Notes: generated by a model not told the origin, from the letters alone. A stretch of DNA of 64,000 bases from Candidatus Cloacimonadota bacterium (GCA_012516855.1 JAAYWB010000059.1:2581-66580), one strand, 5' to 3'; numbered from the stretch's first letter, positions 5,517 to 32,496 are shown. A program made the numbers and translations.

Positions 5517-5519
5517 GAT

Positions 5520-6392: not shown

Positions 6393-6397
6393 AAACC

Positions 6398-7111: not shown

Positions 7112-7113
7112 AC

Positions 7114-8241
7114 ATGCAGGAATTTTTGCAGGTTCTCAACACCACCGGCTTCATTAATTTCAGCTGGGGCAACGTCGTGATGATCCTAGCCGGGATCGTG
7201 TTCATCTACTTGGCCATCGTGAAAGGCTTTGAGCCGCTGCTGCTGGTGCCGATCGGTTTTGGCATCGTTGTGGGCAACATTCCCGGCTTGCTAGAGCAGG
7301 GTCTGGGTGTGGTAAGCGAAGGCAGCGTGCTCAACTACCTCTATTTCGGGGTGAACAAAGGCATCTACCCTTCCCTGATCTTCCTCGGCATTGGCGCCAT
7401 GACCGATTTTTCCACCCTGATCGCCAATCCCAAGCTGATTCTGCTGGGTGCCGCGGCCCAGGTGGGCATTTTCGGAACTTTCCTGGGCGCTTTGCTGCTG
7501 GGCTTTAATGTGCTGGAAGCCGCCTCCATCGGCATCATCGGCGGAGCGGATGGCCCCACCTCCATCTTCCTGGCCTCGAAGCTGGCTCCCAACCTCATTG
7601 GTCCTATCGCCCTGGCAGCCTATTCCTATATGGCTCTGGTTCCGGTGATCCAGCCGCCGATCATGAAGCTGCTCACCACACCCAAAGAGCGCCTGATCCG
7701 CATGAAACCGCCCCGCCAGGTTTCCAAGAGAGAAAAGATATTTTTCCCCGTTATCACCTTTTTGGTGACAGCTATCATTGCCCCGGGAGGGGCCATCCTG
7801 CTTGCCATGCTCTTTTTAGGCAATCTGCTCAAGGAATGCGGCGTCACGGAACGCCTTGCCCTCACGGCCCGCACATCCCTGATCGACATCGTGACCGTGC
7901 TGGTGGGATTCACCGTGGGCGCCAAAACCACCGCCGACGTATTTCTGACTCCTCAGTCTCTGGGAATCTTTTTCCTCGGCGCTTTCGCCTTCGCGATCGC
8001 CACCGCCTGCGGTGTCCTTTTCGCCAAATTCATGAATCTGTTCATCAAAGACAAGATCAATCCTCTCATCGGCAACGCTGGCGTTTCCGCTGTGCCCGCC
8101 AGCGCGCGCGTTTCCCAGGTGATGGGTCAGAAATACGATCCCACCAACTATCTGCTGATGCACGCCATGGCCCCAAACGTGGCCGGGGTGGTCGGTTCCG
8201 CCGTTGCCGCTGGTGTGTTGCTGGGAATTTTGGGAAGCTGA
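7114..8241 (+). CDS. mmdB: Na+-translocating decarboxylase beta subunit (OadB/MmdB/GcdB family)
   Basis: 375-aa polytopic membrane protein with motifs typical of the family (GIGAMTDFS, GGADGPTSIF, NAGVSAVPASARV). Last gene of the decarboxylase operon. Confidence 0.85.
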   Translation: MQEFLQVLNTTGFINFSWGNVVMILAGIVFIYLAIVKGFEPLLLVPIGFGIVVGNIPGLLEQGLGVVSEGSVLNYLYFGVNKGIYPSLIFLGIGAMTDFSTLIANPKLILLGAAAQVGIFGTFLGALLLGFNVLEAASIGIIGGADGPTSIFLASKLAPNLIGPIALAAYSYMALVPVIQPPIMKLLTTPKERLIRMKPPRQVSKREKIFFPVITFLVTAIIAPGGAILLAMLFLGNLLKECGVTERLALTARTSLIDIVTVLVGFTVGAKTTADVFLTPQSLGIFFLGAFAFAIATACGVLFAKFMNLFIKDKINPLIGNAGVSAVPASARVSQVMGQKYDPTNYLLMHAMAPNVAGVVGSAVAAGVLLGILGS

Positions 8242-12502: not shown

Positions 12503-13519
12503 CTATTCCCGCACCGCCTTCACGCAGTAGAATTTTTTCTCCGCGCCCTGTTCCAGCAATATGGAAGTTAAAGATGTTGCCTCGAGTTCGATCCATCCGG
12601 GATCGCCAACCGGGAGGGGCGCATCCGCCTCTAAAACCACATAGCTGAGGGCGTTGGGAACTTCGTTCCAATTCAGGATGATCTGGCCAGTGTCCGTTCT
12701 GGAGATTTGCAGATCTGGTGGCTCTATGAAGATGCCCAGGGTAATGATAACATCAGAGACGACCAGTTCCGTTTCCTGGCCGTTTATGGGCGGTAGTCCG
12801 CTCATCAGCCAGAGGTTGATGTTCAGCTTCATGTCCGTTGATTCCGCGGGGATGCTGGGCCCTTCATAGAGCCAGTCTTCGATCACGTAACTGGAATGGG
12901 GCGGTTCATCATAATGTCCGTGAAGGCTGCGGAAATGGACGAAATCCGGCTGCCAGAGGAAGGAGTGCGAAGTCCAGGACCCTTCCAGTTCAACCTCGAA
13001 AGGATGGTTGTTGCCTGGAATAGAGTAGGGCTGGACGGTGTAGCTGCCGCAGGGATAGTCCGGATCGCCCCAGCGGGAGAATTCGATGTCGATCTCTCTC
13101 AGGTCATCGGCATAGAGGAAAGGCGCGGCGACGACGTTGGGGTCATAGAGGTCCACCCGGCTTTCTAGGTAAAAGAGGTAATTGCCGTATCCGGCAGGCT
13201 CCAGGGTCCAGACCTCGGCGCAGTGCCAGACGCCTCCAATCTGGCGAATTTTCAGGTGCAGTTTCCCTGCGTCATCTACCCAAACACTTTCCTCGCTGTC
13301 GGAAAAGTTGTTCGGCCCGGGTCCCAAGTTCTTTCCGTTTTTCACCCACCAATACCTTCCTGCGAAGTTTATCACCCGCTGGGTGGTGTTTTCCGCCCCG
13401 GGGGCTTCTCCGGCAATGAGCAGCCCCGGCAGAATCAGTTCCAAGGCCAGCAAACCCAACAGGGAAAATGTCAACTGGATCCTTTTCATTGTATTCTCCG
13501 GTATGTTTATGCTTCCCAC
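12503..13519 (-). CDS. Secreted GH16-like (concanavalin-type) glycoside hydrolase with C-terminal FN3-like domain
   Basis: 338 aa with a signal peptide. The candidate catalytic motif EIDIEF fits the GH16 E-x-D-x-E pattern. The C-terminal ~90 aa look FN3/Ig-like (ILNWNEVPNALSYVVLEA). Confidence 0.55.
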   Translation of the reverse strand: MGSINIPENTMKRIQLTFSLLGLLALELILPGLLIAGEAPGAENTTQRVINFAGRYWWVKNGKNLGPGPNNFSDSEESVWVDDAGKLHLKIRQIGGVWHCAEVWTLEPAGYGNYLFYLESRVDLYDPNVVAAPFLYADDLREIDIEFSRWGDPDYPCGSYTVQPYSIPGNNHPFEVELEGSWTSHSFLWQPDFVHFRSLHGHYDEPPHSSYVIEDWLYEGPSIPAESTDMKLNINLWLMSGLPPINGQETELVVSDVIITLGIFIEPPDLQISRTDTGQIILNWNEVPNALSYVVLEADAPLPVGDPGWIELEATSLTSILLEQGAEKKFYCVKAVRE

Positions 13520-14239: not shown

Positions 14240-15235
14240 ATGAAGAAGCTTTGGAATACTATCCAAGGAGTGTTCACAATTAGAGGAACAGTAATGAAGT
14301 CATTCTATAGTGTGATTGCTATGCTGTTAGTGGCTCATTTGATATACGGACAGAATAACACCAATCAACAAGAAATAATAACACAATCTTCAACAACAAC
14401 ATCATCAGATAAAATATCCACTTCAGGAAAACAAATACCAGGATTTATATTTGTTCAGGGCGGCAGCTTCACCATGGGAGATACAAGAGGTAAGGGATGT
14501 GAAGATGAGTTGCCAACCCATATAGACACCCTGAACTCTTTTTACATAGGCAAATTTGAGGTCACCCAAAAGGAGTTTTCCAAGTATATGGCGCCGGATA
14601 TAAAACCAGATACAACCTGGACAATCAAATATGGCTTGGGGGCTAACTATCCTGCTTATAATGTCTCTTGGTATGCCATCCTGAAATACTGCAACTTGCG
14701 CAGCGTGAAAGAGGAGCTAGCTCCCTGCTACAGAATCGGTGGAAGCACTAATCCCAACGATTGGGGCTCTATCCCCACTTTTAAAGACTCCATCTGGGAC
14801 GCTGTCATCTGCGATTGGAACGCCAATGGTTACAGATTGCCGACCGAGGCGGAATGGGAGTATGCAGCCCGCGGGGCAACAAATGAACCGGATTATCTTT
14901 ACAGTGGTTCGGACAAAATAGAATACGTGGCATGGTATTTAGATAATTCTGAAGACACCAGTCATCCTGTCGGGGAAAAAAAAGACAATAGCATTGGCAT
15001 TTATGACATGAGTGGCAACATCTGGGAATGGTGCTGGGACAGGTATTCAGACTCTTACTACAGAAGCAGTCCGCGGAACAATCCGGTTGGTCCCAGCAGC
15101 GGGTTGTCTCGGGTGTTTCGCGGCGGTGGCTGGAACTACAATGCTAGCCTTTGCAGGGTGGCGAATCGTGCCGACGGAGCTCCGTACGAAAGCTACATAT
15201 TCGTTGGCTTCCGCGTCTGTAGATCGGCCCCATAA
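14240..15235 (+). CDS. Formylglycine-generating-enzyme (SUMF1/FGE-sulfatase) domain protein, secreted or membrane-anchored
   Basis: ATG at 14240 follows AAGGAG. A hydrophobic N-terminal segment is present. Motifs FYIGKFEVTQKEF, GYRLPTEAEWEYAARG, GNIWEWCWD and RVFRGGGW...RVANR are typical of the family. The gene is markedly AT-richer than its neighbours. Confidence 0.8.
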   Translation: MKKLWNTIQGVFTIRGTVMKSFYSVIAMLLVAHLIYGQNNTNQQEIITQSSTTTSSDKISTSGKQIPGFIFVQGGSFTMGDTRGKGCEDELPTHIDTLNSFYIGKFEVTQKEFSKYMAPDIKPDTTWTIKYGLGANYPAYNVSWYAILKYCNLRSVKEELAPCYRIGGSTNPNDWGSIPTFKDSIWDAVICDWNANGYRLPTEAEWEYAARGATNEPDYLYSGSDKIEYVAWYLDNSEDTSHPVGEKKDNSIGIYDMSGNIWEWCWDRYSDSYYRSSPRNNPVGPSSGLSRVFRGGGWNYNASLCRVANRADGAPYESYIFVGFRVCRSAP

Positions 15236-15291
15236 TATTATGAGTTTGTATCTTTATTCCTGAAGGTACAAACAATAAAAACATGAATCAA

Positions 15292-15339
15292 GAACCGTTA
15301 CCCCTCCCCGAAAGTGCAGTTTAGGGGGGGTAACGGTTC
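15292..15339 (+). terminator. Strong GC hairpin downstream of the FGE-domain gene
   Basis: GAACCGTTACCCCTCCCC...GGGGGGGTAACGGTTC gives a stem of about 16 bp. No clear T-tract follows, so terminator function is uncertain. Confidence 0.4.
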
Positions 15340-15557
15340 GGGCTATGGGACCAGTTTCTTTTGATACTTTTTCTTTCCCAAAAAGTTGCTGGTAAGCTGC
15401 TGAAAATCGTCATAACTGCACAATGATCCACTTTTTGTGCTCCTTTTCAACCCATTTTACTCATTTTCCAGCCTAATTCGCAGCAGCTGTACGGTTTTTC
15501 CTATGGACGGACTTATCTTTCACTACTTTTTCCACGGCTCGCCAAATCACAGCCTAG

Positions 15558-15850
15558 CGTACATCGAAAGCAATGAGCATGGACGACAGGATAAACCGCG
15601 GAAACGAAGGTAGGATATATAGAAGCACTCAGTCTTTGTTGCCGTCGATGCTCGTTCCTTGCTCGACGCCAGCTTTTGGCCGGGGTGAAGCGACACCGAC
15701 TGGCCGTTAGGGCCCTGACCTGTGTCCCGGATGCGCCTCCCGCATAATGCCCGTATTTGATGCGAGGATTATACGGGAGGCAGGGGAGAGGGATAAGCGC
15801 AGGCGCTCAGGGCCTGACTGGCAGGATAGAATGGCGGGCAGGGGTTTATA
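15558..15850 (-). repeat. Intergenic repeat family, copy 1 (long form, inverted relative to the other copies)
   Basis: Palindromic core at 15736..15780 (CCTCCCGCATAATGCCCGTATTTGATGCGAGGATTATACGGGAGG). Flanks CTGGCCGTTAGGGCCCTG and GCGCTCAGGGCCTGACTGGCAGG match the reverse complement of the other copies. An extra imperfect long hairpin lies at 15558..15672. Confidence 0.8.
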
Positions 15851-17092: not shown

Positions 17093-19966
17093 TTATTCCA
17101 CCGGCAGGAAATTGAGGAAGGCGTTGATGCCCAGGGTGGAGATGACGGTGCCGATCAGCACACTGATGACGATGAGGATCTTGAAATAGTCCTGGGCTTT
17201 GAGCATGGCCACCAGTTCCAGGTTTCGGGAAAGGTAGGCCGAAGCGGCATAAAACTCTTCACCGATGAGGGTATAATCGCAGGTGGTGATGAAGAACGGG
17301 ATTTGGGTGATGGCGTCGGAACCGGCAATTTGGATGGCGCCGCTCTGGTTGCCGGTTTCTGTCATCAGCAGGGCTTCCGCGTAGAAATAGCCCATGTAGA
17401 AGATGGTGGCAACCTTTTCGCGGACGGTGATGCCATTCACGGCCGCGCAGAAAGCGAACTGGGTGTCTGAAACGAAGAAGATGTCGTCCTGGTTGTAGGC
17501 GTCGGGCCGGCCGGCTTCGTTGTAGGCGGTCAGCACCATTTCCTGGGCCAGCGGGAGCACCAGATAGTCCACCTGGGGTGAGATGAGCCGGATGTCGTAT
17601 TCCGCGGTTTTGCCGCCGATCTTGTTGAGGATCATCATGGCCGAGATAGTGCAGGGGTCGCCCAGGGTGCCCCAGCCGGGCACAAACATCACGGGACGGC
17701 CCATTTCGGTGGCGCGGCCCACGGCGTTGTCCAGCTCTTCCAAACCTGCGATGGGACGGATGTAGAGGTCCTTGCGCCTGGCCTGGAAGATGGCGTAAAC
17801 CACCATCAGGCCAAGGATGATGGAGGCGATCAGGGTGGCCAGTTTGGTTTTGTCGAACCACTCCCCTTTCGGGTGCAGCGGAGTTTCGATCCCCGGTCCG
17901 GTGGGCTTGAGTTCAGGCTGGTCGGTCTCATCGGCCCAGAGGCCTTTGCCGTTGGTGGCCAGCATCTTATATTGGTAGGCGCGGGAATTGCGGTCCAGCT
18001 CATTCAGCATAACGCGGCGCCAGGCTTTGTCGCTGCCGGCTTTAACGCCGGCGAGATAGGCCGGATGTCCTTTGATGTAAGCCAGTTCAGCCTCGCTGGC
18101 CTGAAGTTCCTGCGCCTTTTCCGAAAGCGAATCGCCCGGGGCCACGGTCTGTTTCAGCTTGGCGATGCTGGCGGCCAGGTCTTTCAGATAATCCTCCGTG
18201 TCCTTTTTATAGAGGCTGGGGGACAAAGCCACGCCGGAAGCGGGGTCCACGGCCACAGTGAAATGCGGGTCCGTGAGCACCAGGCCGGTTTTGGGGTCAA
18301 CCTTGCTGATCAGCGGATTCTGGGTATCCACGTAGGGCACCAGATGCTCATAAAAACGGCTCAGGGCACCGATACGCATGCCAGGGCTGTATGATCCGCT
18401 CAGGTTGTTTTTGCTGAAAATGTCGTAGTAAAGGTGGTTCAATTCCTGCCCGGCACTGGTGACCTTGCCTCCGTTGAAACGGAAGGCCTGGGGATCGTAG
18501 TTCACCTGCTGGCTGATGGGCGGGCCGGGGAAATTCTTTTCGCCCTGAATTTCGGTGAAAACCTCCACATTGAAGCCAATCTCGGGATTCCTGCCCTTGG
18601 GGAATTTCACGCGGATGATCTTGTCCGGATAGCTTTCTCTCACTTCATTCAAAACCTTGCCATCGGCATCTAGGAAGCGGAGCTTGAGCCTGGAAACCTT
18701 TTGATGGCCATTTTCGGCGATTTCATAGTTCACCCGCAGCCTGGTTCTGGCCTTGTTCAGCCAGGAAGCCTGGGTAACGAAGGCGAAGGGGCGGCCGAAG
18801 GAAAAGATGATGTTGTCGCCCTTGTCATAAACTTTTTCCACGACCTGGTAATCAGGCAGCTTGGGCAGGTCCGCCGAGCTTTTTATCTGCAGCTTTTCAC
18901 CCAGGGACGCGGCCTGGAAGGATTCCTGGCGGAGGCCGTCCTCCGACGACCAGTAATTGGCATAGGTGAGAACCGGCACCCAGTTGACCAGTTCCTCCGG
19001 GGAAGGAATGTTTGTCCCGGCCTCGGTGAGGTCCACTTTGTCGTAAAAGCTTTGGGACCAATAGTCAGGCTCCATCTGGTGCACGAGGATCGAGCCTCTT
19101 TGCCAGTTGGCGATGAACACGCTGTCCGGAGCGGCGGCGTTGGCTATTTGGTCCTCGCGGAACTGGGGCAGCAGGCTGCGGGGCATCAGCCAGGCTTCCC
19201 AGGCCACGATGTTGTTGCTACCCAAAGGCGGTGACCACTCGAAGCGAAGTTCGTTCCTATCAGTCAGATAGGAGGTGTGCAGCACCGCGGTGGAATCGGG
19301 ACGGTTGTTCACCGGCACCACTTTCCGCACCGGGGTGGCAGGCAGGAACCTGCCCGTTTCGGTAACGGGAACCACGCAGTAGTAATAGCTGTGTTCAGCC
19401 TTGGGATTGGCATAGAGGTTGTTGAACTGGTTAAGCCGGTAGCCGGCGTAGATTTCTTTGGAATCACCCTGGCCAATTTCCACGCGTTTGGAGCTGTTGT
19501 AGTATTTGGAAGCTTTGATATCGCCGATGACATCGTAGTGTTTGAGCATTTCGCCCAGGATCTTGGCATCCCGGGGCACACCTTTGTAAAGCGTACCTTC
19601 GGCAACCTGCTGCTTTTCCTTTTTCAGCCTTCCAGGGGCTGTCTCAAACTCGATGAGGGGATTGAAGCTTTTGTCCTCGAAATTGAGCCAATTGCCTGAC
19701 GCACCGGCTTTGGGGTCAGCTTCCTGGGTGGATAGAAGAAAAAGGCTGTCCGGGCTGACGCCGCGGTAGATGTTGTATTGGATGATCCTGTGTTCGCCGC
19801 CAAGGGGCTTCCATTTCAGTAAAACGCCGGAGCCGTCGTCGTGCGGCATGTCGAGGGCGAGAAACTCTTCTATCTGTGCTGCCCTGGTGTCACCGCCCGA
19901 GCAGGCGGTGAGGAGCAACGCTGCCGCCAAAAGCAGCAGCAGTCCAAGCTTTATGATTTTATTCAT
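17093..19966 (-). CDS. Giant lipoprotein B (957 aa): FN3-like N-terminus, long ectodomain, TM, conserved ~230-aa C-terminal domain, terminal TM; function unknown
   Basis: Lipobox LLTACS. Paralogue of the 22530..25568 product. Identical stretch QIAGSDAITQIPFFITTCDYTLIGEE in the C-terminal domain. Confidence 0.85.
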   Translation of the reverse strand: MNKIIKLGLLLLLAAALLLTACSGGDTRAAQIEEFLALDMPHDDGSGVLLKWKPLGGEHRIIQYNIYRGVSPDSLFLLSTQEADPKAGASGNWLNFEDKSFNPLIEFETAPGRLKKEKQQVAEGTLYKGVPRDAKILGEMLKHYDVIGDIKASKYYNSSKRVEIGQGDSKEIYAGYRLNQFNNLYANPKAEHSYYYCVVPVTETGRFLPATPVRKVVPVNNRPDSTAVLHTSYLTDRNELRFEWSPPLGSNNIVAWEAWLMPRSLLPQFREDQIANAAAPDSVFIANWQRGSILVHQMEPDYWSQSFYDKVDLTEAGTNIPSPEELVNWVPVLTYANYWSSEDGLRQESFQAASLGEKLQIKSSADLPKLPDYQVVEKVYDKGDNIIFSFGRPFAFVTQASWLNKARTRLRVNYEIAENGHQKVSRLKLRFLDADGKVLNEVRESYPDKIIRVKFPKGRNPEIGFNVEVFTEIQGEKNFPGPPISQQVNYDPQAFRFNGGKVTSAGQELNHLYYDIFSKNNLSGSYSPGMRIGALSRFYEHLVPYVDTQNPLISKVDPKTGLVLTDPHFTVAVDPASGVALSPSLYKKDTEDYLKDLAASIAKLKQTVAPGDSLSEKAQELQASEAELAYIKGHPAYLAGVKAGSDKAWRRVMLNELDRNSRAYQYKMLATNGKGLWADETDQPELKPTGPGIETPLHPKGEWFDKTKLATLIASIILGLMVVYAIFQARRKDLYIRPIAGLEELDNAVGRATEMGRPVMFVPGWGTLGDPCTISAMMILNKIGGKTAEYDIRLISPQVDYLVLPLAQEMVLTAYNEAGRPDAYNQDDIFFVSDTQFAFCAAVNGITVREKVATIFYMGYFYAEALLMTETGNQSGAIQIAGSDAITQIPFFITTCDYTLIGEEFYAASAYLSRNLELVAMLKAQDYFKILIVISVLIGTVISTLGINAFLNFLPVE

Positions 19967-20064
19967 GCGTTCTTCCCATGGGCCTTGCCCACCGGTTCAA
20001 GTTAAAACTAACAAGGAGGGGAAGCCCGGTTAAGCTTCCCCCATGTTTATAAACGCTGATCCGG

Positions 20065-20682
20065 TCAGCCGGCGATGGCCTGTTTGATGGCCATGAAGAC
20101 GTCATTTACCAGGAACTGGATACGTCCGATCAGAAGCGAAATACGAGCCATCACAGTGAGGCCGAAGGAAGCGCCGAAGCCCACCATCATGAACCATTTG
20201 CCGATGCTCACGAATTTTCCGTAAACCCCGGTGTGGGCTTTGGAAAAGAAGAAATAGAGCAGCACGGCAATCGTTCCGATGAAGATCAGGGCCAGGTTCA
20301 CGTTCTCGATCGGCACCATGGCCTGGCGCATCTGCACCAGGATGCTGTTGTGCATGGCCAGCGCGACGGAAGCGCCCACACCCATCATCGAAAAAGCGAT
20401 GGGATAGCGCGACAGCCAGCTGAGTTTGCGGGAAAAACGCAGCAGGTAGAACATACCGATGATGCTTGGTATGATCAGTATCCACTCGTGTTTGAGGAAG
20501 ATGGGCTGGTAGAAATAGGGGATGAACACCCTTTCATAGGTGAGCACCAGCGAATAGCCCAGCGATATTCCCACTAGAAGCTGTTCGGACATCTGATAGA
20601 AAGGGTTGTCCTTGTAAAGGAAGGAGAAGATACAGAGGGTGAAAAAGGCACCCACAAGGTTGCTAAAGAGTTCAAATGTCAT
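20065..20682 (-). CDS. Polytopic inner-membrane protein (205 aa), paralogue of 21891..22517 product; function unknown
   Basis: Hydrophobic throughout, with about 5-6 helices. The C-terminus MMVGFGASFGLTVMARISLLIGRI resembles that of the 208-aa protein. Confidence 0.75.
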   Translation of the reverse strand: MTFELFSNLVGAFFTLCIFSFLYKDNPFYQMSEQLLVGISLGYSLVLTYERVFIPYFYQPIFLKHEWILIIPSIIGMFYLLRFSRKLSWLSRYPIAFSMMGVGASVALAMHNSILVQMRQAMVPIENVNLALIFIGTIAVLLYFFFSKAHTGVYGKFVSIGKWFMMVGFGASFGLTVMARISLLIGRIQFLVNDVFMAIKQAIAG

Positions 20683-20694
20683 TTTTTCCTCCCT

Positions 20695-21888
20695 TTATTG
20701 TTTGCGGAGACGGGCTTTCTGGATGAAGTAGCCGATGTTTCCGATCAGGATGAACACGATGATCATGATGTGGGCTACGGATTGGGCGTTCATGCCGATG
20801 CGGGCGACCTTGAACTTGTAGATGGTGTTGCGGGTCATGCGGTTCAGGGCATCCCAGGTGGTGGGGGCAAAATCGTTTTCTTCAAGGTCGCTTACGTCGA
20901 TCACGATCTTGCCGTCGGCTTCTTGTTTCGCCTGAGTCAGCTTAGCGCGGTCCTCCTCAGGATAGTTCTCCACGAATTTCTGAAACTCTTCCGGGGTGAA
21001 CTTGGCCTGGGTCTGGGTGGTGATTTTAACCAAATCCTGCACCTCGGGTTTTTCCAGAATGTCGTCGCTGAAAGAACGGCCGGGCAGTATTTTATTGCCT
21101 TCTTCGTCGGTGTAGGGGTGCATCACGTCGCCGGGAGCGCGGTAGGCGGCAAAGACTTCCACCAGTTTTTCATATTCGGCGGCGCCCTTCAAGCCTGCCA
21201 GCATGCCGATGAACTGGCCGGTCTGCAGGTAGGGATATTCATCAGCGGCCATCACGGCGGTAACGCCCACCGCGATGTTGGTGCCGAATTTGGGACGGGC
21301 GTAGGTGAGCCAGTAGCCACCTGCGACGGAGCCGGAAAACTCAATCACCAGGTTCATTTCCGTGTAGTTGTTAATGCCTTTCATGATAGGTAGGTTTTCC
21401 ACCTTGCGGCCCTCGGCATCGGTGGGAACCGCGGTGGCGATGTTGTCGCCCATACCGATGATGGTTGGCATGATGAGGGCGGCGGGGATGTAGCCGAAGT
21501 TGCAGTAGTCGGTGCCGCTCTTGATGTTCGGATACTCTTCCTTTACGGTGTTGATGGCCATGTCGATGATGGGCGCGCCGGTGGGCAGGAAGGAAAGGAA
21601 AAACACCTTCACGTTGCGCTCGAAGCAGTGGCGCAGAATGGCTATCTGCATGGGATAGAGTTCCGGCATGGTGGAGGCGTCATGGTAAAAGCTCATCAGG
21701 ATGGCGCGGTCTTCGCGTCCGGCGAAGGAATCGACCATCTGATACACGTTTTCCGTGGGCGGAGAGGTCACGTTGTCCGAATTATAGGGTAACATCAAAG
21801 GAATGATGATAGCCAGGGCGACAACGATGTAGATCCAGCGGCGGTCAAGCTTTTGCAGACGTTCGAAGAAGTTCAGTTTTTCTGTCAT
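20695..21888 (-). CDS. TM - soluble domain - TM protein (397 aa), central gene of the cluster; function unknown
   Basis: ATG at 21888 follows GGAGGTG; the track start at 21894 is a TTG. N-terminal TM (WIYIVVALAIIIPLML) and C-terminal TM (VAHIMIIVFILIGNIGYF). Motif order is loosely similar to the C-terminal domain of the giant proteins. Confidence 0.8.
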   Translation of the reverse strand: MTEKLNFFERLQKLDRRWIYIVVALAIIIPLMLPYNSDNVTSPPTENVYQMVDSFAGREDRAILMSFYHDASTMPELYPMQIAILRHCFERNVKVFFLSFLPTGAPIIDMAINTVKEEYPNIKSGTDYCNFGYIPAALIMPTIIGMGDNIATAVPTDAEGRKVENLPIMKGINNYTEMNLVIEFSGSVAGGYWLTYARPKFGTNIAVGVTAVMAADEYPYLQTGQFIGMLAGLKGAAEYEKLVEVFAAYRAPGDVMHPYTDEEGNKILPGRSFSDDILEKPEVQDLVKITTQTQAKFTPEEFQKFVENYPEEDRAKLTQAKQEADGKIVIDVSDLEENDFAPTTWDALNRMTRNTIYKFKVARIGMNAQSVAHIMIIVFILIGNIGYFIQKARLRKQ

Positions 21889-21890
21889 GA

Positions 21891-22517
21891 TCAATCACCT
21901 CCCAGGTAGGAACGTTCAATTCCCAGCAGGAGCTTCAGGGTGGTGGCTACGCTGCCGAGGCCAACGCCAAGCATGATCCCGCGTTTGGAGGCCAGGTTCG
22001 GCACGTCAAGGATCCATTGAGAAATATCCGGCAAGAATTTGCTGATCTTAACTCCCAGCGGCACCTGGGCCAGCATCACCACTATGGCCGCCACCAGCAG
22101 CACGGTGGCTTCAGGAGATCTGGCGCGGAAGGCCTTGTAAGCCGCGGAGGCCATGTAAAAGGCCAGCAGCGAGAACATTGTGGCGCTCATCGGCATCTGC
22201 ATGTTTTCGAACAGCCACATGTAGAGCCCGCCTTTCTGGGTTCCGCCGATAAATCCGGCCAGCGAAGTGACGATGAATCCGGCGAAGAAAAAGAAGCTGT
22301 ACTGCCACTTGGGAGCTTTGCGTGTGATCTTACCATAGTGCATCATGGAAAGGCTCATCACGCCCAGCAGCATGCCGAAAGGCGCCATTGCCCGTGCCCA
22401 GGGAACGTAAAACTCGTAGTAGAAAACATCCTGCAGCAGCCTGTGGGGCACGAACACCCAGGCTAGCCAGATGAATCCTCCGATTATCACTATCAACAGG
22501 GGAATTGTCTTCTTCAT
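21891..22517 (-). CDS. Polytopic inner-membrane protein (208 aa), paralogue of 20065..20682 product; function unknown
   Basis: About 6 hydrophobic helices. C-terminus GIMLGVGLGSVATTLKLLLGIERS. Starts 12 nt after the upstream gene's stop. Confidence 0.75.
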   Translation of the reverse strand: MKKTIPLLIVIIGGFIWLAWVFVPHRLLQDVFYYEFYVPWARAMAPFGMLLGVMSLSMMHYGKITRKAPKWQYSFFFFAGFIVTSLAGFIGGTQKGGLYMWLFENMQMPMSATMFSLLAFYMASAAYKAFRARSPEATVLLVAAIVVMLAQVPLGVKISKFLPDISQWILDVPNLASKRGIMLGVGLGSVATTLKLLLGIERSYLGGD

Positions 22518-22529
22518 CTAAGACCTCTT

Positions 22530-25500
22530 TTATTTTAAGGGGAAAGCTTGCATTATGCCAGTCAGCTGGAATGTAGCCGTTAAAGCGCCAACTATCACAA
22601 AAACCAGGATCAGGAACTTGAAGTAGTCCTGGGCTTTGAGGGTTCCCAGCAGCATCGGTTCACGGTTCAGATAGGCGGAGGCAGCGTAAAGCTCTTCTCC
22701 GATGAGAGTGTAGTCGCAAGTGGTGATAAAGAACGGGATCTGGGTGATGGCATCCGAGCCGGCGATCTGCACGGCTCCGACGGCGTTACCCGTTTCCGTC
22801 ATCAGCAGAGCTTCGGCGGCGAAATAACCCATGAAGAAGTTGGTAGCCATCTTCTCACGGATCATAATGCCGTTCACTCCCGCCACATAGGCGAACTGCA
22901 CGGAGGTGAGGTAGAAAACGTTGTTTTTGTCATAGCTGTCCGGGCGCCCCACCGCGTAGTGAGCTTCCCGTACGATTTCCTGGGCGATGGGCATCACGAT
23001 GTAGTCGTAGCAGGGAACTATCAGTTTAGTGTCATATTCAGCGGCCTTTTTGGCAACCAAACTCAGGATGCCCATGGAAGCAAGGGTCGCCACGTCCGAA
23101 AGCCCGCCGTTGCCCATGCAGTAAAGCATTGGGCGTCCCATTTCGGTGGCGCGGCCGATGGCGTTGTCGATCTCCTGCAAACCGGCAATGGGACGCATAT
23201 AGAGGTCTTTGCCCTTCTTGGCCAGATTCACAAACACCACTACCATGATCCCGAAGATGAGCACCGCAAATAGGGTGATGAGCTTGTTCCAGTCGAACCA
23301 GTTGGAGATCGGCGCGTAGTTTACATACTCCCCGGTCTTGAGGGTGTCCGGTGCCGTTTCGGAGAAAAGGCCTTCGCCGTTGGTTCTCACGATCATGTAG
23401 CTGTGCTGGCGTGATTCCGGCTCACGGATGGAGGACACCAGGCGCATCAGCCCACGGTCGTTTTTCTGCTTCAGGGCTTCCTGGAAAAGCTTGTTGCTGC
23501 TGTAGGCTTTGACCTTTTCCTCCAGGCCTTCCACCTTTTGGGTGAGGCGGGCGACAGCGCCCTGATAGACCATAGCGGTTTCTGGCACTTTGGCTTGGGC
23601 CAGGGAATCTCCACAGGCGGCAAGTTCTTTTTTGGCGTCGTCCAGATCGGTCTTCAGATTACCGATTATCTTCTTCGCCTCGTCCAGATAGATGCTGGTA
23701 TTCAGTGTGGTTTTGCTTTCCTGGTCGTAGGTGAAATCGATTTCAGAGGAGACCAGAGCGAGGTCGCGGGCTTTTTCTCCTGCCGCCAGTTTGCGGGAGA
23801 AACGTTTCCCATCCATATATGTATATAATGAATCGCCTTTAACAAAGTTGAATCCGGCGATGGGTTTGGTTACTGTGGATATGTAGCCGATGGTCACGTC
23901 GAGGTTGTTTTCGTAGGAGGTGCTGCTCTTCACCAGACTGTAGGTAGAACTCCTGTATCCTTTGCGGTAAACCACATTTTGCACCTGGGAGACGTCAACG
24001 CCGTTCAGATACAGCCCCCGCGTTGGCATGTAGGCCATCATGGCGGGGTCCGGTTTGATGTATTGCACCATCGTGTAATCTTTGAGCAGCTCTTTTTTGC
24101 CGTAGGTGATGCGGCCGTTTTGGGGATTTATCTTGTAGGGCTTCACGGCCATGGTGATTTTCACTTGCAGACTGTCTTCGGGAACTTTCCCGCCGTTTTT
24201 CAGGGAGTATTTTTTGGGAATGTTCACATAGATGATGTTGTCTTGGTGAAATTCGTTTACCTTGGCAAAGGCAGTGTCTTTGCCCGGCTCGAAGAACTCG
24301 AAATAGATGTTACTGATATTCTGATTGTCGGTCTTGTTCACCTGGTAGTTTACTTTCAGCCTGGTGCCGTCTTTTTTCAGCGAGGATGTTTTGGTGATTG
24401 AGACCACAGGGTCCTGCCAGGTTACGGTGATGCGGTCGCCTTTGTCCATGGGTTTGTCTTCCACCCGGAATTTGGCGATTTGCGGCAGCGCGCTGCTTTT
24501 CACCCTTTTGGGCGAAGCTGGCAGGCTCAGCGGAGACTGGTTCATGCTGTAATCCATGAAGCGGATGCTGAAGCGGCTCTGGCTGGCCTGTTCCCAGCTC
24601 AAACCGGGCGCTGCCTGGCTGAGTTCTTCCTCAGTGACCACGCAGTTGTTTTTCAGCGAACCGCTGCCAACTCCGCCTCCGGCAATTTTCACCGCCGTCC
24701 CGGCCACAGCCTCCTGTTGTTCCGCGCTCATCATTTTCCAGGCGGAATCCGGCAGGGCTGGAACCATGTAGATGGAATAGGCTGCCAAATCGTCGTGGTT
24801 GAGGGGATATTCCCACTCGAACTGCAGTGTGAGATTGTCCTCAACAGCCGCGGCGAACAGACCGGGTGAGGCTTCCGGAGCGTCGTCAATCGGCGTTCCG
24901 GCCACGGGTTTCGCGATACCCAGATACTGGTTGCGTTCGTTAACGGGTACCACGGTATAGTAGTAATCAACTGGCTTTTCCCCGGGCTGAGCGCTCTTCA
25001 GCGAAGCCAGAATGGTCTGCTGGTTAAATCTCAAGCCGGCATAGATGTTCTCGTCTTCCTTGTCTGCCGATCTGGCCTTGACGGTCTTGTAATAATAATC
25101 TCCGTCTTCGATCTGGGAGAGCAGGGAAAAGCTTTCGCTCAACCGCGCGACAAGCTCTGTATCCCGCGGAACACCCCGGTAGAGGTTGCTGCCGGGGGCA
25201 CCTTTCTCGTGTTTTAACTTGCCGGGGGAATCCAGGCTTACGAAGCTGCTGTAACCGCTGTCGTAATAAAGCATTTCATCGGTGGCCACGCCGGTCTTCA
25301 CGTTCACCTGCACCGAGGTCAGGAAGAACAAGGTGTCCGGATGAACACCCCTGTAAATACGGTATTCCTGCACCCTTTTGTCTTTGGGCAGGGGTTTCCA
25401 GCTAAGCATCAAGCCGTCGCCGCCGTCGTTGGGGATGTCTTTCACCTGAAGGTTTTCCACCACCAGTTTCTTCAATTTGGCCTGTTCCTGCCCGCTCGGT

Positions 25501-25568
25501 CTGCTGCACCCGAAAGCAAGCAAGCCGGTCAGCAAAATCAGGATGAAGAGACGTATGTACAACTTCAT
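22530..25568 (-). CDS. Giant lipoprotein A (1012 aa): FN3-like N-terminus, long ectodomain with coiled-coil-like stretch, TM, conserved C-terminal domain, terminal TM; function unknown
   Basis: Lipobox LAFGCS. Motifs shared with the 957-aa paralogue: P.D.G.G..L.WKPL...Y.IYRGV.PD.LF, LY(R/K)GVPRD, IYAG.R.NQ, YYY.VVPV.E, and RPIAGL.E.DNA.GRATEMGRP. Confidence 0.85.
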   Translation of the reverse strand: MKLYIRLFILILLTGLLAFGCSRPSGQEQAKLKKLVVENLQVKDIPNDGGDGLMLSWKPLPKDKRVQEYRIYRGVHPDTLFFLTSVQVNVKTGVATDEMLYYDSGYSSFVSLDSPGKLKHEKGAPGSNLYRGVPRDTELVARLSESFSLLSQIEDGDYYYKTVKARSADKEDENIYAGLRFNQQTILASLKSAQPGEKPVDYYYTVVPVNERNQYLGIAKPVAGTPIDDAPEASPGLFAAAVEDNLTLQFEWEYPLNHDDLAAYSIYMVPALPDSAWKMMSAEQQEAVAGTAVKIAGGGVGSGSLKNNCVVTEEELSQAAPGLSWEQASQSRFSIRFMDYSMNQSPLSLPASPKRVKSSALPQIAKFRVEDKPMDKGDRITVTWQDPVVSITKTSSLKKDGTRLKVNYQVNKTDNQNISNIYFEFFEPGKDTAFAKVNEFHQDNIIYVNIPKKYSLKNGGKVPEDSLQVKITMAVKPYKINPQNGRITYGKKELLKDYTMVQYIKPDPAMMAYMPTRGLYLNGVDVSQVQNVVYRKGYRSSTYSLVKSSTSYENNLDVTIGYISTVTKPIAGFNFVKGDSLYTYMDGKRFSRKLAAGEKARDLALVSSEIDFTYDQESKTTLNTSIYLDEAKKIIGNLKTDLDDAKKELAACGDSLAQAKVPETAMVYQGAVARLTQKVEGLEEKVKAYSSNKLFQEALKQKNDRGLMRLVSSIREPESRQHSYMIVRTNGEGLFSETAPDTLKTGEYVNYAPISNWFDWNKLITLFAVLIFGIMVVVFVNLAKKGKDLYMRPIAGLQEIDNAIGRATEMGRPMLYCMGNGGLSDVATLASMGILSLVAKKAAEYDTKLIVPCYDYIVMPIAQEIVREAHYAVGRPDSYDKNNVFYLTSVQFAYVAGVNGIMIREKMATNFFMGYFAAEALLMTETGNAVGAVQIAGSDAITQIPFFITTCDYTLIGEELYAASAYLNREPMLLGTLKAQDYFKFLILVFVIVGALTATFQLTGIMQAFPLK

Positions 25569-26293: not shown

Positions 26294-26413
26294 GTTCCTC
26301 CTTGAGCATTTTCCAACTCGAAAACAGCATGGTTTCCGGCTTCATATTTGTCAATGCCATTTGTTTTTCAAGGATACGGAATCCAAATTGCATGCCATCA
26401 CAGAGTGGAGGAA

Positions 26414-28975
26414 ATGATGAAAAGATGCCTGTTTCTGGTCATGTTCCTGGCACCGCTGCTGCTGAGCGCTGCCAACTTCTTCGATTTGCCCACCGAGGTG
26501 ACGCAGCCTGACGGCTCCGTGCTGGATTTGCTTGCTTCGGGCGATGAATTTGCCAACCGCCTGCACGACGCGAACGGCTATACCATCATCCAGAGCCCCA
26601 TCGACGGCTGGTATTATTACGCTGTCCGCTCCGGAAGCGAACCGGTCCCTTCTTCATACAGGGTTGGTTCCGCTGACCCAAGAGCACTGGGCCTCGAGCC
26701 CGGGATAAACATCTCTCCAGAGCGTTACCACCAGAAAGTGGCATTTATGAATTCCCACGCCCGCTCCGGCTCCAAAGGCCCGAACACTGGCACTGTGAAC
26801 AACCTTGTGGTCTATATTAAATTCAGCGACCAGACGGAATTCAGCGATCCCCGCTCGGTTTACGACGCCAAGTTCAATGCTGTGGGCGACGACCAGTTTT
26901 CCCTGCGCAACTACTTTCACCAGGTGAGCTATGACCAGCTTGATTACGTTTCCCATCACTTCCCCACTTGCGAACCAAACGTCAATCTATCCTACACGGA
27001 CAGCCATCCCCGGGCGTACTTCCTGCCCTACAACTCCGTCACCAATCCCACCGGCTACCGCGATTTCCAGCGCACCGACCGTGAACATCAGTTGCTGGCC
27101 GACGCCCTGAACTCCATTGCCAGCCAGGTGCCCTCCACATTGAACATCGACGCCGACAACGATGGCTATGTGGACAACGTCTGCTTCGTAATCCGCGGAC
27201 CCCATTCCGCCTGGGCGGAACTGCTCTGGGCCCACCGCTGGGTGCTCTATACCCAGGATGTTTTCATCAACGGCAAAATGGTCTGGGATTTCACCTTCCA
27301 GCCGGAAAACCAGAACAGCGTGCGCACCCTCTGCCATGAAATGTTCCACAGCGTGGGCGCTCCGGACCTCTACCATTACGATTTTGACGGCATCACCCCC
27401 GCCGGCTGCTGGGACATCATGGAAAGCGGCGGCGGCCACATGTGCATGCATATGAAATACCACTACGGCGGCTGGCTGAGTTCCATCCCCACCATCGGGC
27501 CCGGAACTTACACCCTAAACCCCGTAACTTCCCAAGTGAATAACGCTTACCGCTATGAACTCAACTCCCAGGAATCCCTCGTTTTCGAATACCGCAAACG
27601 CGGCGCTGACATCTTCGAGGAAAACCTGCCCGGTTCCGGACTGCTGATCTATCGCGTCAATTCCACACTGAGTGGAAACGCCTCTGGTCCGCCGGACGAG
27701 GTTTACGTATTCCGCCCCGGCGGCTCCCAAACCTCCAACGGCTCCGTCTTCGACGCCAGTTTCAGCGCCCAGAGCGGACGCACCGCCTTCAACCAACACA
27801 CAGATCCCTGCTGCTTCCTGAGCTACGGAAGCTCGTGCCCCGTGAACGTCCATAGCATCTCGGAAGCCCATGAAACCATCACTTTCACGCTTTCGACCTC
27901 TGACGCGGCTTATCCGCCCCTGATTTCGGGATTTGTTCCGGCTGACGGCGCCATCATCACCGCGGTGGACACCCTGATTTCTGTGCAGATCGACGATCTG
28001 GGGACAAACATCAGCCTGGTCGAGTTTTTCCTCGATGACCTAAGCGTGGGCACATCCTACACGCAACCCTGGTCGGTGAATATTCCCGAAGGCTGGCTCA
28101 CTCCGGGGCAGCACACAGTTAAAGTGCGCGCTGTCAATACCACCAGCCTTGAAGCCAGCGCCCAGGCCAGGGTGAAGGTGGTCGATCCGCTGCAGCCGAC
28201 CTGGTTTGGCTGGCTAAGCGAAACTCCGGTCTGGGACGAATACGGACGCGGGGCTGTGCCTATCAAGATAGCGCTGGAACTTGATTTGGGCGCGCAGCAG
28301 TATCTGGTGAAAAAACTGGCTTTCGACGCGGTGGCCGATCCCTGGGGCTTTCCAGTCGAGCCGGGACTGGTGAACGCCAAGATCCACCGCTTTTCCAACG
28401 GCGCCATCACTAATGAGATACTGCTCGACATCGGCGACATCATCAGCCCCATGAACGGCAGGTTTGAACACACCGTGAACAGCCTTATACCCATCTCCGG
28501 GCACGTGGCTGTGGTTTTGGACCTCTTTGAATACCAAAAGCTCCGCTTCGACATCAATGGAGCCTGCGGACACAGTTGGACAACCGAACCTGACCGACCC
28601 TGGACCGATGCCCTTGCCCGCGGCGTTTTGGGCGCAGCTGCCATCGAGCTTCAGCTTCAGGCTCCGGGCTCTCCAAACCAGGATTTGACCGTCCCCACTC
28701 CGGAACCAAGCCTGAGCGCCTGGCCCAATCCCTTCGCTGCCAGCGCCGTCATCAGCCTGGACCTCAAAGCCGCTGCCCCCACTGAACTGGCCATCTACAA
28801 CCTCCGCGGGCAAAAGGTCCGTTCCTTGCTGGATTCCCGGCTCGGCACCGGCCGCCATGAAATCGCCTGGGACGGCCTCGACCAATCTGGCCGCGCCGTT
28901 TCCCCCGGCATCTACTTCTGTCGCCTTAAAACTGGAGATTTCGCCAAAACCATCCGCCTCGCCAGGATCAGATAG
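26414..28975 (+). CDS. Secreted M6-type (immune inhibitor A-like) metalloprotease with Ig-like domains and Por/T9SS-type C-terminal domain
   Basis: ATG at 26414 follows GGAGGA; the track start at 26348 is probably too long. Signal peptide MMKRCLFLVMFLAPLLLSA. HEMFHSVGAPDLY fits HExxHxxGxxDxY. C-terminal tail WPNPFAASAVISL...GIYFCRLKTGDFAKTIRLARI. Confidence 0.8.
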   Translation: MMKRCLFLVMFLAPLLLSAANFFDLPTEVTQPDGSVLDLLASGDEFANRLHDANGYTIIQSPIDGWYYYAVRSGSEPVPSSYRVGSADPRALGLEPGINISPERYHQKVAFMNSHARSGSKGPNTGTVNNLVVYIKFSDQTEFSDPRSVYDAKFNAVGDDQFSLRNYFHQVSYDQLDYVSHHFPTCEPNVNLSYTDSHPRAYFLPYNSVTNPTGYRDFQRTDREHQLLADALNSIASQVPSTLNIDADNDGYVDNVCFVIRGPHSAWAELLWAHRWVLYTQDVFINGKMVWDFTFQPENQNSVRTLCHEMFHSVGAPDLYHYDFDGITPAGCWDIMESGGGHMCMHMKYHYGGWLSSIPTIGPGTYTLNPVTSQVNNAYRYELNSQESLVFEYRKRGADIFEENLPGSGLLIYRVNSTLSGNASGPPDEVYVFRPGGSQTSNGSVFDASFSAQSGRTAFNQHTDPCCFLSYGSSCPVNVHSISEAHETITFTLSTSDAAYPPLISGFVPADGAIITAVDTLISVQIDDLGTNISLVEFFLDDLSVGTSYTQPWSVNIPEGWLTPGQHTVKVRAVNTTSLEASAQARVKVVDPLQPTWFGWLSETPVWDEYGRGAVPIKIALELDLGAQQYLVKKLAFDAVADPWGFPVEPGLVNAKIHRFSNGAITNEILLDIGDIISPMNGRFEHTVNSLIPISGHVAVVLDLFEYQKLRFDINGACGHSWTTEPDRPWTDALARGVLGAAAIELQLQAPGSPNQDLTVPTPEPSLSAWPNPFAASAVISLDLKAAAPTELAIYNLRGQKVRSLLDSRLGTGRHEIAWDGLDQSGRAVSPGIYFCRLKTGDFAKTIRLARIR

Positions 28976-30634: not shown

Positions 30635-32496
30635 CAGGCTTTGAGGCGGTTAAGGATTCCGGCGGCCAAAGTTTCCGGCGTGAAGCCGATCATGTCATTT
30701 AGCTGTTCGGTCTTGCCGTGGGCAATGAAGCTGTCCGGATAGCCGAAATTAACCACTTGGCATGGTTTGGCTGCCAGCAATTGAGCGATCCGGGAGCCCG
30801 TTCCGCCAATCACGGCGTTGGTCTCGAAGGTGAAGAGATGGGAACAGCTCTCGCCCAGTTCGTTCAGCAATGCCTCATCCAGCGGCTTGAGGCTGCGGAG
30901 GTTGACCAGCCAGGGGTTCAGGCCGGCTTCAACCAGCAACGCGTGGGTCTTTTCGGCTACCATTCTGGCACCGCCGTCAGTGATAAGGGCGATGTTTTTT
31001 CCCTGGTGGACTGTTTCAGCCCGGCCCGGCACGAAATCCGTTAGTGGCAATTCTCCCCGGCTTGCGGTCCCGCGTGGGTAGCGGATGGCAACAGGCCTGT
31101 CCTGATATTTGGAGGCGAAAGCGAGCATGGAGTCCAGTTCCTCCGCTGTGGAAGGTGAAAGAATGATCAGGTTGGGGATGGCGGAGAGCAACGAAACATC
31201 AAAGGCGCCTTGATGAGTGGCCCCGTCTTCGCCGACCAGCCCGGCCCGGTCTATGCATAAAACCACGGGCAGGCGGGGCAGGGCAACGTCATGGATAACC
31301 TGGTCGATGGCACGCTGCAGGAAGGTGCTGTAGATGGCCACGAAGGGTTTCACGCCCTTGCAGGCCATTCCTGCTGCCAGGGTCACGGCGTGTTGTTCGG
31401 CGATGCCGACGTCGAAAAAGCGCTTGGGGAATTTCTTTTCAAAGGAGGCCAGACCGGTTCCAGCGGCCATGGCGGCTGTGATGGCCACGATTTTGGGATC
31501 GGCTTCAGCCAGTTGGACCAGGCTTTTGCCGAAAACTTCGCTCCAGCTTTCGCTGCCGCTGCTGGCCTGTTTGCCGCTGTTGGCGTCGAAGGGGCCCACT
31601 CCGTGGAAGGAAGAGGCATCCTGCTCCGCGGGAACGTAGCCGCGGCCTTTCTGGGTTACCACGTGCAGCAGAACCGGGCCGACCATGTGGCGCTTGATGC
31701 GGCGGAGCATGGTGGAGACGAGTTCAACGTCATGGCCGTCGATGGGCCCCACATATTTGAAGCCGAGGTCCTCGAAGATGATGTTCGGCACCAGGATGTT
31801 CATCATCGACTCCTCCAGCTTTTGGGCACCGAGAATGAAGCGGCGGCGAAGGTTTTCCGGCAGGGTGCCGCCGAGGTCCCAAATCTGCTGTTTGAGGGTG
31901 TTGTAGGGCCGGCTGGCCATCATCCTGGCCATGTATTCCTGCAGGCCGCCGACGTTTTGGGAGATGGACATCGCGTTGTCGTTGAGGACGACCAGAAACT
32001 TGTTTTTCTGCAGGTGCCCCGAGTGGTTGAGGGCCTCGAAGCTCATGCCGCCGGTGAGGGCTCCGTCGCCGATCACGGCGATGCAGAAGCCGCTTTCGCC
32101 CTGCAGATCCCGGGCGCAGGCAAGGCCCAGGGCCGCGGATACGGAAGTGCTGCTGTGGCCTGTGCTGAAGGCGTCGCAGGGGCTTTCATCGCGGTTGGTG
32201 AAGCCGCTGATGCCTCCAAAAGAGCGAAGGGTGTCAAAGCGCTCGTTGCGCCCGGTGAGTATCTTCCAGGCATAGCTCTGATGGCCCACATCCCAGACCA
32301 CGCGGTCCTTGATGGGGTCAAACACGCTGAGCAGGGCGAGGGTGAGTTCCACCGTTCCCAGGCTAGGGGCGATGTGTCCGCCGTTGATGGAGACAACGTC
32401 CACGATGCGTTTGCGGATTTCCTTGGCCAGCAGGGTCAATTCCTGAAGGCTGAAGTCTTTTATAACAGAAGGGTCTTTAATCTTTTCCAATATCAT
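30634..32496 (-). CDS. dxs: 1-deoxy-D-xylulose-5-phosphate synthase
   Basis: 620 aa. GGHIAPSLGTVELT, GHSSTSVSAALG, the GDGALTGGMSFEALN ThDP motif and the transketolase-like C-terminal half are present. Confidence 0.9.
   Translation of the reverse strand: MILEKIKDPSVIKDFSLQELTLLAKEIRKRIVDVVSINGGHIAPSLGTVELTLALLSVFDPIKDRVVWDVGHQSYAWKILTGRNERFDTLRSFGGISGFTNRDESPCDAFSTGHSSTSVSAALGLACARDLQGESGFCIAVIGDGALTGGMSFEALNHSGHLQKNKFLVVLNDNAMSISQNVGGLQEYMARMMASRPYNTLKQQIWDLGGTLPENLRRRFILGAQKLEESMMNILVPNIIFEDLGFKYVGPIDGHDVELVSTMLRRIKRHMVGPVLLHVVTQKGRGYVPAEQDASSFHGVGPFDANSGKQASSGSESWSEVFGKSLVQLAEADPKIVAITAAMAAGTGLASFEKKFPKRFFDVGIAEQHAVTLAAGMACKGVKPFVAIYSTFLQRAIDQVIHDVALPRLPVVLCIDRAGLVGEDGATHQGAFDVSLLSAIPNLIILSPSTAEELDSMLAFASKYQDRPVAIRYPRGTASRGELPLTDFVPGRAETVHQGKNIALITDGGARMVAEKTHALLVEAGLNPWLVNLRSLKPLDEALLNELGESCSHLFTFETNAVIGGTGSRIAQLLAAKPCQVVNFGYPDSFIAHGKTEQLNDMIGFTPETLAAGILNRLKA

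Follow-up and report, generated by a model that had tools for sequence, protein, structure and literature searches.

A stretch of 64,000 nucleotides (nt) from a Candidatus Cloacimonadota bacterium (GCA_012516855.1, JAAYWB010000059.1:2581-66580), referred to here as the window, carries at positions 17093-25568 a cluster of five genes. It is composed of one copy of a conserved four-gene module, termed D-A-B-C after its subunits and here formed by the genes G1-S1-M-S2, and of a lineage-specific extra D gene, G2; this composition is well supported. An earlier reading made from the DNA alone (the sequence-only reading) had proposed a heteromeric membrane machine with large periplasmic arms, and the gene set very probably encodes such a complex. 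The cluster is a genuine feature and no product of chance; of the three paralogies proposed in that reading one stands, and its symmetry does not. The best overall explanation, which is regarded as probable, is that the D-A-B-C module and the extra D form one inner-membrane complex in which the arms vary on the periplasmic side while the membrane and cytoplasmic core is conserved.

Open reading frame (ORF) calling placed all five genes on the minus strand, at the positions and with the lengths first proposed. G1 (22530-25568; 1012 amino acids (aa); signal peptide with the lipobox LAFGC) was assigned as the D subunit from its ORF, Pfam and topology. S1 (21891-22517; 208 aa; six transmembrane (TM) helices) was assigned as the A subunit by homology to the position-2 proteins described below and by family charge statistics, and M (20695-21888; 397 aa; TM helix, Rossmann-like domain, TM helix) as the B subunit by homology to the position-3 proteins and an AlphaFold2 (AF2) model. 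S2 (20065-20682; 205 aa; polytopic) was identified as the C subunit by homology to the position-4 proteins, and G2 (17093-19966; 957 aa) as the second D subunit from its ORF, Pfam, paralogy to G1 and a neighbour-joining (NJ) tree. The spacing was also as described: 12 nt between G1 and S1, a TGAtcATG junction (2 nt) between S1 and M, 12 nt between M and S2, and 98 nt between S2 and G2. M is 99% identical to proteins of Candidatus Syntrophosphaera metagenome-assembled genomes (MAGs), which places the window in a Cloacimonadota genome.

The module was delimited by examining the neighbourhoods of distant proteins that contain DUF6754, the C-terminal domain of both D proteins, in Zixibacteria, Eisenbacteria and one further lineage. 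There, a DUF6754 protein of ~410 aa is followed by proteins of ~210, ~280 and ~215-230 aa, and such sets occur as direct repeats of two or three. S1, M and S2 are homologous to positions 2, 3 and 4, respectively (E 1e-30 to 1e-60), with no cross-matches. In a scan of one genome per species a relative was encoded in at least 596 of 600 candidate stretches; the family hidden Markov model (HMM) analysis and the counts of gene order were made on the best 80 loci of these. The order was found to be fixed, with 115 D-to-A, 115 A-to-B, 113 B-to-C and 60 C-to-D transitions and no inverted order; two split genes and one D-D pair were the only exceptions. The genes are tightly packed (median intergenic gaps of 10 nt for D-A, -1 nt for A-B, 3 nt for B-C and 28 nt for C-D), and each locus holds one to three tandem copies of the module. 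Carriers were found in at least 15 phyla, among them Cloacimonadota, Zixibacteria, Eisenbacteria, Ignavibacteria, WOR-3, Stahlbacteria, Edwardsbacteria, Coatesbacteria, Poribacteria, Scalindua, Methylomirabilis and Armatimonadetes. Conservation of synteny in relatives, named in the sequence-only reading as a check, thus holds across phyla, and its view that these are not five unrelated hypothetical genes is upheld by a strongly conserved gene set in fixed order.

In Zixibacteria and Ignavibacteria, modules 1, 2 and 3 form orthologous clades (D1, D2 and D3 in the NJ tree of DUF6754 domains); on this phylogenetic evidence whole modules were duplicated there long ago. Downstream of the last module, 11 loci of these two lineages have a small ORF of ~104-115 aa that belongs to no known family (e.g., L001:11667-11981), 13 have a pyruvate phosphate dikinase gene (e.g., L001:12155-15112) and nine an ADP-forming acetyl-CoA synthetase-like gene. 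Apart from the accessory set described below, the conserved neighbours were lineage-specific only (pyruvate phosphate dikinase, ADP-forming acetyl-CoA synthetase and glycine cleavage genes).

Conservation had been noticed mainly in the membrane-proximal parts of the giants. The wider family agrees, in that the membrane and cytoplasmic portions are constant and lineage-specific insertions cluster on the periplasmic face, in the D ectodomain, loop 3 of A and the domain of B. Insertions of up to ~390 aa (in L065) lie between TM3 and TM4 of the A-family proteins L065:10791-12569, L078:10791-11741 and L074:10710-11525, and several B-family representatives have insertions of 100-550 aa within the periplasmic domain. 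In a complete Zixibacteria chromosome a 571-aa ORF (L074:11538-13253) joins a full B (aa 1-288) to a full C (aa 300-521); the fusion could be real, or else an assembly frameshift error. No Rosetta-stone fusion with A, C or D was found among 150 B-family representatives, the long ones being insertions or B-B tandems. Because of the fixed order, the tight gene coupling, the whole-module duplications and this one B-C fusion, assembly of the four products into one inner-membrane complex is strongly inferred.

The two D proteins of the window are paralogues, as had been claimed. They share 33% identity over their full length (E 4e-167), 30% in the ectodomain and 58% in the TM helix plus DUF6754, and the identical stretch noticed in both was confirmed as 26 residues, QIAGSDAITQIPFFITTCDYTLIGEE. 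The statement that no family could be assigned holds for S1, M and S2 and fails for the C-terminal domain of the giants, which is PF20539 (DUF6754; G1, E 1e-116, 389 bits; G2, E 5e-112, 374 bits; cut-off 27). The domain spans aa 755-1008 of G1 (window 22545-23306, minus strand; predicted cytoplasmic) and aa 700-952 of G2 (window 17111-17869), and in G1 it is flanked by TM helices at about aa 762-783 and about aa 982-1009. Both proteins keep the PF20539 architecture, a secreted N-terminal FN3 followed by a TM helix, DUF6754 and a second TM helix. They differ from the usual PF20539 proteins, which consist of FN3 and DUF6754 in ~410 aa with an ectodomain of ~100 aa, in having an ectodomain of ~700 aa, an FN3 split by an insertion of ~115 aa, and a lipobox.

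The N-terminal FN3-like motifs common to G1 and G2 correspond to the FN3 of the wider D family, whose N-terminal part matches the FN3 of titin and neogenin among PDB sequences. The family FN3 HMM matched aa 38-81 and 365-386 of G1 and aa 34-76 of G2; the first FN3 of the giants is the one interrupted by the insertion, and in G1 another FN3-like start occurs near aa 365. A weak, helix-rich Pfam match was obtained at aa 623-704 of G1, and the long ectodomain of this protein probably contains a helical or coiled-coil stretch. The lipobox reported for both giants stands as far as the pattern goes, since both N-termini fit a PROSITE-style expression (LAFGC at position 21 and LLTAC at position 22), but it is not a family feature. 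Because it occurs in only 4 of 38 giant orthologues, lipidation, itself predicted, is taken to be no property of the system, and the term giant lipoprotein holds for the present genome only. A candidate third DUF6754 giant, at window 930-3809, was rejected: the match of the D-family HMM came from FN3 only, and Pfam identified an M1 aminopeptidase with FN3 and a type IX secretion system (T9SS) tail.

DUF6754 is ~54-58% identical to its homologues in other phyla and has 63 invariant columns; by sequence comparison the domain in G1 is the most conserved part of the system. The family comprises more than 7,400 clusters at 90% identity, and literature searches returned no paper mentioning DUF6754 or PF20539. 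The predicted local distance difference test score (pLDDT) of its AF2 model was 63.7; the N-terminal half is a confident alpha/beta structure, and the C-terminal half, in which conservation is extreme, was modelled poorly. No match to the PDB was obtained by fold, for this weak model, or by sequence. Use of this first DUF6754 structure model as a guide to function was dropped, the conserved half being too weak.

The A family (~210 aa) has six TM helices and, from family-wide charge statistics, both termini in the cytoplasm. S1 is 40-47% identical to the position-2 proteins of other phyla, and its conserved motifs AFRAR and GIERSYLGG lie on the cytoplasmic side of the predicted topology. S2 has about six hydrophobic segments, with an orientation left ambiguous by charge statistics, and is 36-45% identical to most of its position-4 counterparts in other phyla, the weakest match being 29%; an invariant Glu (E33) stands at the predicted start of TM2 in the C family. 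The terminal helices of both A and C are conserved and glycine-rich. The layout read from the sequence of M, a soluble domain between two TM helices, was borne out by topology and by an AF2 model (pLDDT 92.5; predicted TM-score 0.88): an N-terminal TM helix, a periplasmic Rossmann-like alpha/beta domain with a Cloacimonadota-specific insertion at ~aa 245-362, and a C-terminal TM helix. Foldseek searches of the PDB with this model gave no significant match; the best (E 0.014) were generic Rossmann-like proteins only, with TM-scores of at most 0.36 in the ten top-ranked matches and up to 0.47 on small Rossmann-like targets. Clustering at 50% identity leaves 5,283 representatives of the B family.

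No Pfam or NCBIfam family was found for A, B or C when 40-47 members of each were scanned, the only matches being scattered, weak ones typical of TM proteins. The four families had no PDB sequence relatives apart from FN3, whether single sequences or family profiles were used, and none of the five proteins was matched by the anti-phage defence models of PADLOC. A profile or structure match of the modules to a characterised system, named in the sequence-only reading as telling against it, was sought in Pfam, NCBIfam and the PDB, and none was found.

The sequence-only reading had described the cluster as duplicated pairs around a unique core. In its full form this is a pseudo-symmetric machine, with the giants and the two small membrane proteins as pairs on either side of a central protein that is itself related to the C-terminal domain of the giants. 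The D-A-B-C-D order does look mirror-like and recurs in one Cloacimonadota subclade, A and C are alike in size and helix count, and the layout of an alpha/beta domain between two TM helices is common to B and DUF6754. However, the real unit is a directional four-gene module in which A and C are different families, unrelated by sequence and profile: S1 and S2 gave a BLASTP E value of 0.33, their family profiles (more than 100 sequences each) an hhalign probability of 0.5%, and their C-terminal glycine-rich helices scored no better than a reversed control. Likewise, no relation of M to DUF6754 was detected by sequence or by hhalign of family profiles. A pattern seen in both by eye, P-x11-G-x4-AA, was discarded, the soluble domains having an hhalign probability of at most 0.1%, equalled by the reversed control.

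The two domains are, in addition, on opposite sides of the membrane. Charges had given conflicting sidedness for what was then taken as a shared domain, and the family statistics settle the conflict by separating two soluble domains: both termini of B are cytoplasmic and its domain periplasmic, and DUF6754 is predicted to be cytoplasmic because the FN3 and ectodomain of D follow a signal peptide and are themselves followed by a TM helix. Outside Cloacimonadota the layout is a direct repeat, D-A-B-C-D-A-B-C, and in the window the supposed mirror is split by a terminator-like hairpin (see below). Since the window holds one module plus an extra D, the mirror image is an accident of that arrangement, and a symmetric machine is considered highly improbable.

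The extra D can be placed in the NJ tree of DUF6754 domains, in which the Cloacimonadota proteins are monophyletic and the G2-type proteins form their own clade inside them; a second Cloacimonadota group carries a D2 clade of its own. G2 has no A-B-C set of its own, and the giant ectodomain is common to G1 and G2. Because the G2 clade lies inside the phylum and both paralogues are giant, D alone was duplicated in Cloacimonadota, after the expansion of the ectodomain. A 540-aa orphan D gene with no A, B or C gene within 10 kb was also seen in a Coatesbacteria MAG (L079) that has a full D-A-B-C module elsewhere (L059), so extra D copies are not limited to Cloacimonadota.

A consensus scan of the 98-nt gap between S2 and G2 revealed a terminator-like hairpin on the minus strand (20017-20042; 11 bp, 6 GC pairs) with a minimum free energy (MFE) of -20.1 kcal/mol (z = -3.2), the strongest terminator-like hairpin of the region. 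Of 13 related D-A-B-C-D loci, 11 have a strong hairpin between C and the second D; the sequences are unrelated, and several are followed by T-runs. At the Cloacimonadota C-to-D2 junctions the median best 46-nt MFE was -25.1 kcal/mol, and 79% were at or below -18 kcal/mol (background 5%). The corresponding values for C-to-D junctions inside the tandem modules of other phyla were -11.2 kcal/mol and 20% (background 13%). Because of the terminator-like hairpin predicted before G2, a single five-gene operon, as first suspected, is doubtful; G1-S1-M-S2 looks like an operon, with G2 expressed separately or weakly.

A conserved set of four accessory genes, U160-U93-U600-U375, immediately precedes the first module in several phyla, at 10 of the 41 loci whose upstream sequence is long enough to show it (L003 (4071-7852), L005, L026, L030, L031, L038, L068, L069, L071 and L085). 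U160 is a 160-aa membrane protein with a weak match to the bacterial PH domain (bPH), and U93 has ~93 aa. U600 is a GlmL/MutL-type ASKHA ATPase of 600 aa (PF13941, E 3e-128) with a C-terminal extension, and U375 (375 aa) has an N-terminal barrel-sandwich hybrid domain that matches the RnfC_N and NqrA_N models. Neither the window nor any Cloacimonadota locus examined contains the set; it is facultative, or its genes lie at another site in the genome. Literature searches on PF13941 and on Cloacimonadota with FN3 returned nothing relevant. In the Eisenbacteria-like loci L003, L005, L026 and L038, the U set and two modules lie between gcvT/gcvH/gcvP and a lipoate-protein ligase gene (in L003, flanks 1-4067 and 15041-15847). 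The two flanks are functionally linked to each other, and the arrangement may be plain lineage synteny.

In the arrangement envisaged for the complex, A and C would form the membrane core and B a periplasmic cap, and D would link a periplasmic arm to the cytoplasmic domain. The arm has grown in Cloacimonadota from ~100 to ~700 residues, and two different arms, those of G1 and G2, probably share one A-B-C core. To judge from the D-only duplications, the orphan D of the Coatesbacteria MAG and the hairpin before G2, D may be an exchangeable arm of a shared core. In some phyla DUF6754 may work with the adjacent GlmL-type ASKHA ATPase and the barrel-sandwich protein. By analogy with known machines, the complex could be a trans-membrane coupling device and not a solute carrier, its arms reaching variable targets in the periplasm or envelope and linking these to events at the conserved cytoplasmic domain; this is put forward tentatively. 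Several observations weigh against the overall explanation. No ATPase is encoded in the module, and the Cloacimonadota loci lack the ASKHA set. The TM helices of A, B and D lack a conserved acidic residue such as is found in Ton/Mot-type motors, E33 of C being the exception; in B, the invariant positions next to TM1 are occupied by basic residues (Arg16 and Arg17), and none within its TM helices is acidic. The DUF6754 model is weak exactly where conservation peaks, and the S2-G2 hairpin is a consensus and energy prediction. Moreover, the ~16 TM helices of the module, with their glycine-rich terminal helices, would equally suit a transporter.

If the module were instead a multi-subunit transporter of a new kind, for a solute, a lipid or an envelope precursor, the translocation path would consist of A and C together with the TM helices of the other two subunits, the periplasmic domains of B and D would bind or hand over the substrate, and the tandem modules would differ in specificity. 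Besides the helix count and the conserved glycine-rich helices of A and C, the retention of tandem paralogous modules as orthologous clades, which is common for transporters, fits this proposal, and the conserved, hydrophobic and glycine-rich half of DUF6754, poorly modelled as it is, could be partly membrane-embedded. It is nevertheless thought rather unlikely: no transporter family was matched in Pfam or NCBIfam, with every family member scanned, or among PDB sequences, a carrier would not usually have FN3 arms of 100-700 residues or a duplication of D alone, and no ATPase or substrate-binding protein is conserved nearby. The conservation of DUF6754 could also be read as that of an enzyme, since many of its invariant residues are polar (GRATEMG, RPD, ETG and DYTLIGEE), the N-terminal half of its AF2 model is Rossmann-like alpha/beta, and one homologue was labelled DsrF/TusC-like by a source. 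The complex would then act on an envelope polymer or lipid-linked intermediate, with DUF6754 as the catalytic domain and A and C holding or flipping the substrate. However, searches by fold and by sequence linked DUF6754 to no enzyme family, nucleotide-binding and catalytic motifs of recognised types were not found, and no envelope-biosynthesis genes are conserved beside the module, so that a membrane-bound enzyme complex seems improbable. The coupling device is retained as the working proposal, at the tentative level given above, with the transporter and the enzyme complex kept as serious alternatives.

The flanking genes offer no lead to function. They are housekeeping or catabolic, and include a Na+-translocating methylmalonyl-CoA decarboxylase, Dxr, Dxs, MnmE, a BatA/VWA protein and T9SS-tailed peptidases. 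The gene 24 nt downstream of G2 was confirmed as encoding a pyridoxal phosphate enzyme, of the Cys/Met-metabolism type by Pfam, and the two tRNA-Val genes upstream on the same strand were also confirmed; an Rfam scan found nothing besides tRNAs. Two large, secreted peptidases are encoded on the plus strand, an M1 aminopeptidase (window 930-3809) and an M6-like peptidase (window 26348-28975). Both have Ig/FN3-type domains and FlgD_ig-type tails, the M1 enzyme also has sub-threshold Por_Secre_tail matches, and both are likely cargo of type IX secretion; one of these two putative T9SS peptidases is directly upstream of the tRNA-Val pair. The decarboxylase genes (window 3972-8241, plus strand) encode a carboxyltransferase, an OAD gamma-like subunit and an OAD beta subunit, consistent with the methylmalonyl-CoA decarboxylase of propionate-metabolising Cloacimonadota. 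A protein with a BatA N-terminal region and VWA (window 32493-34466, minus strand) is encoded by the first of a run of co-directional ORFs down to 37811; the run resembles an aerotolerance (Bat)-type operon, a likeness judged from this first gene only. A 338-aa ORF (window 12503-13519, minus strand) matched no Pfam family at E up to 0.001.

A four-protein system whose gene order is the same in such distant phyla as Cloacimonadota, Zixibacteria, Planctomycetota (Scalindua), NC10 and Armatimonadetes is probably not dispensable. No described homologue was found, and three of its four proteins are without even a DUF number. Defining the module turns thousands of scattered hypothetical proteins into one testable unit, with four chains to co-express and natural variants that differ in arm length (short or giant), in the number of modules (one to three) and in the presence of the ASKHA set. 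It is possible, and no stronger claim is made, that D-A-B-C is an unrecognised envelope machine of diderms, present in hundreds of species of at least 15 mostly uncultured phyla, in which a conserved cytoplasmic domain would be coupled to exchangeable periplasmic arms, long enough in Cloacimonadota to reach the outer membrane, and which would work with a GlmL-type ASKHA ATPase in some lineages.

Among known systems, TonB-ExbB-ExbD, Tol, Mot and GldLM resemble the module in logic only, in that polytopic inner-membrane subunits are combined with bitopic periplasmic-domain subunits and a long periplasmic arm. Several TonB paralogues can share one ExbBD, and in D-A-B-C, too, the arm gene has been duplicated without the core. 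Unlike in the Ton, Tol and Mot systems, no MotA_ExbB, ExbD or TonB match was obtained in Pfam or NCBIfam for the five proteins or the family members, and the D arm protein bears a large conserved cytoplasmic domain, whereas TonB has none. Na+-NQR and Rnf share with the module two 6-TM proteins of ~200 aa, a TM-anchored subunit with a periplasmic domain and a TM-anchored cytoplasmic alpha/beta subunit, and the U375 protein of other phyla, which is not encoded in the window, has an RnfC_N/NqrA_N-type barrel-sandwich domain. They differ from it in that the Rnf-Nqr family of Pfam matched none of the 40 A and 40 C proteins scanned (E up to 0.1) and none of the window proteins, and no Cys is among the invariant or nearly invariant columns of A and C. 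The PCP/Wzz and GldG proteins have the same layout as B, a periplasmic domain between two TM helices; faint phmmer matches of B to LolE/LolF, considered for their periplasmic domains, were not significant (E 0.29-0.76) and were lost with the family profile. Type VII ABC systems (MacB/LolCDE/FtsX) are set apart by the lack of significant similarity in the periplasmic domain and of an ATPase in the module. A, C or DUF6754 may yet be distantly related to a known fold, because B alone was modelled with confidence. By these comparisons, D-A-B-C is outside every known kind of system tested here, and an envelope coupling or transport machine of this composition would represent a new class beside Ton/Tol, Lpt, Lol, Mla and GldLM.

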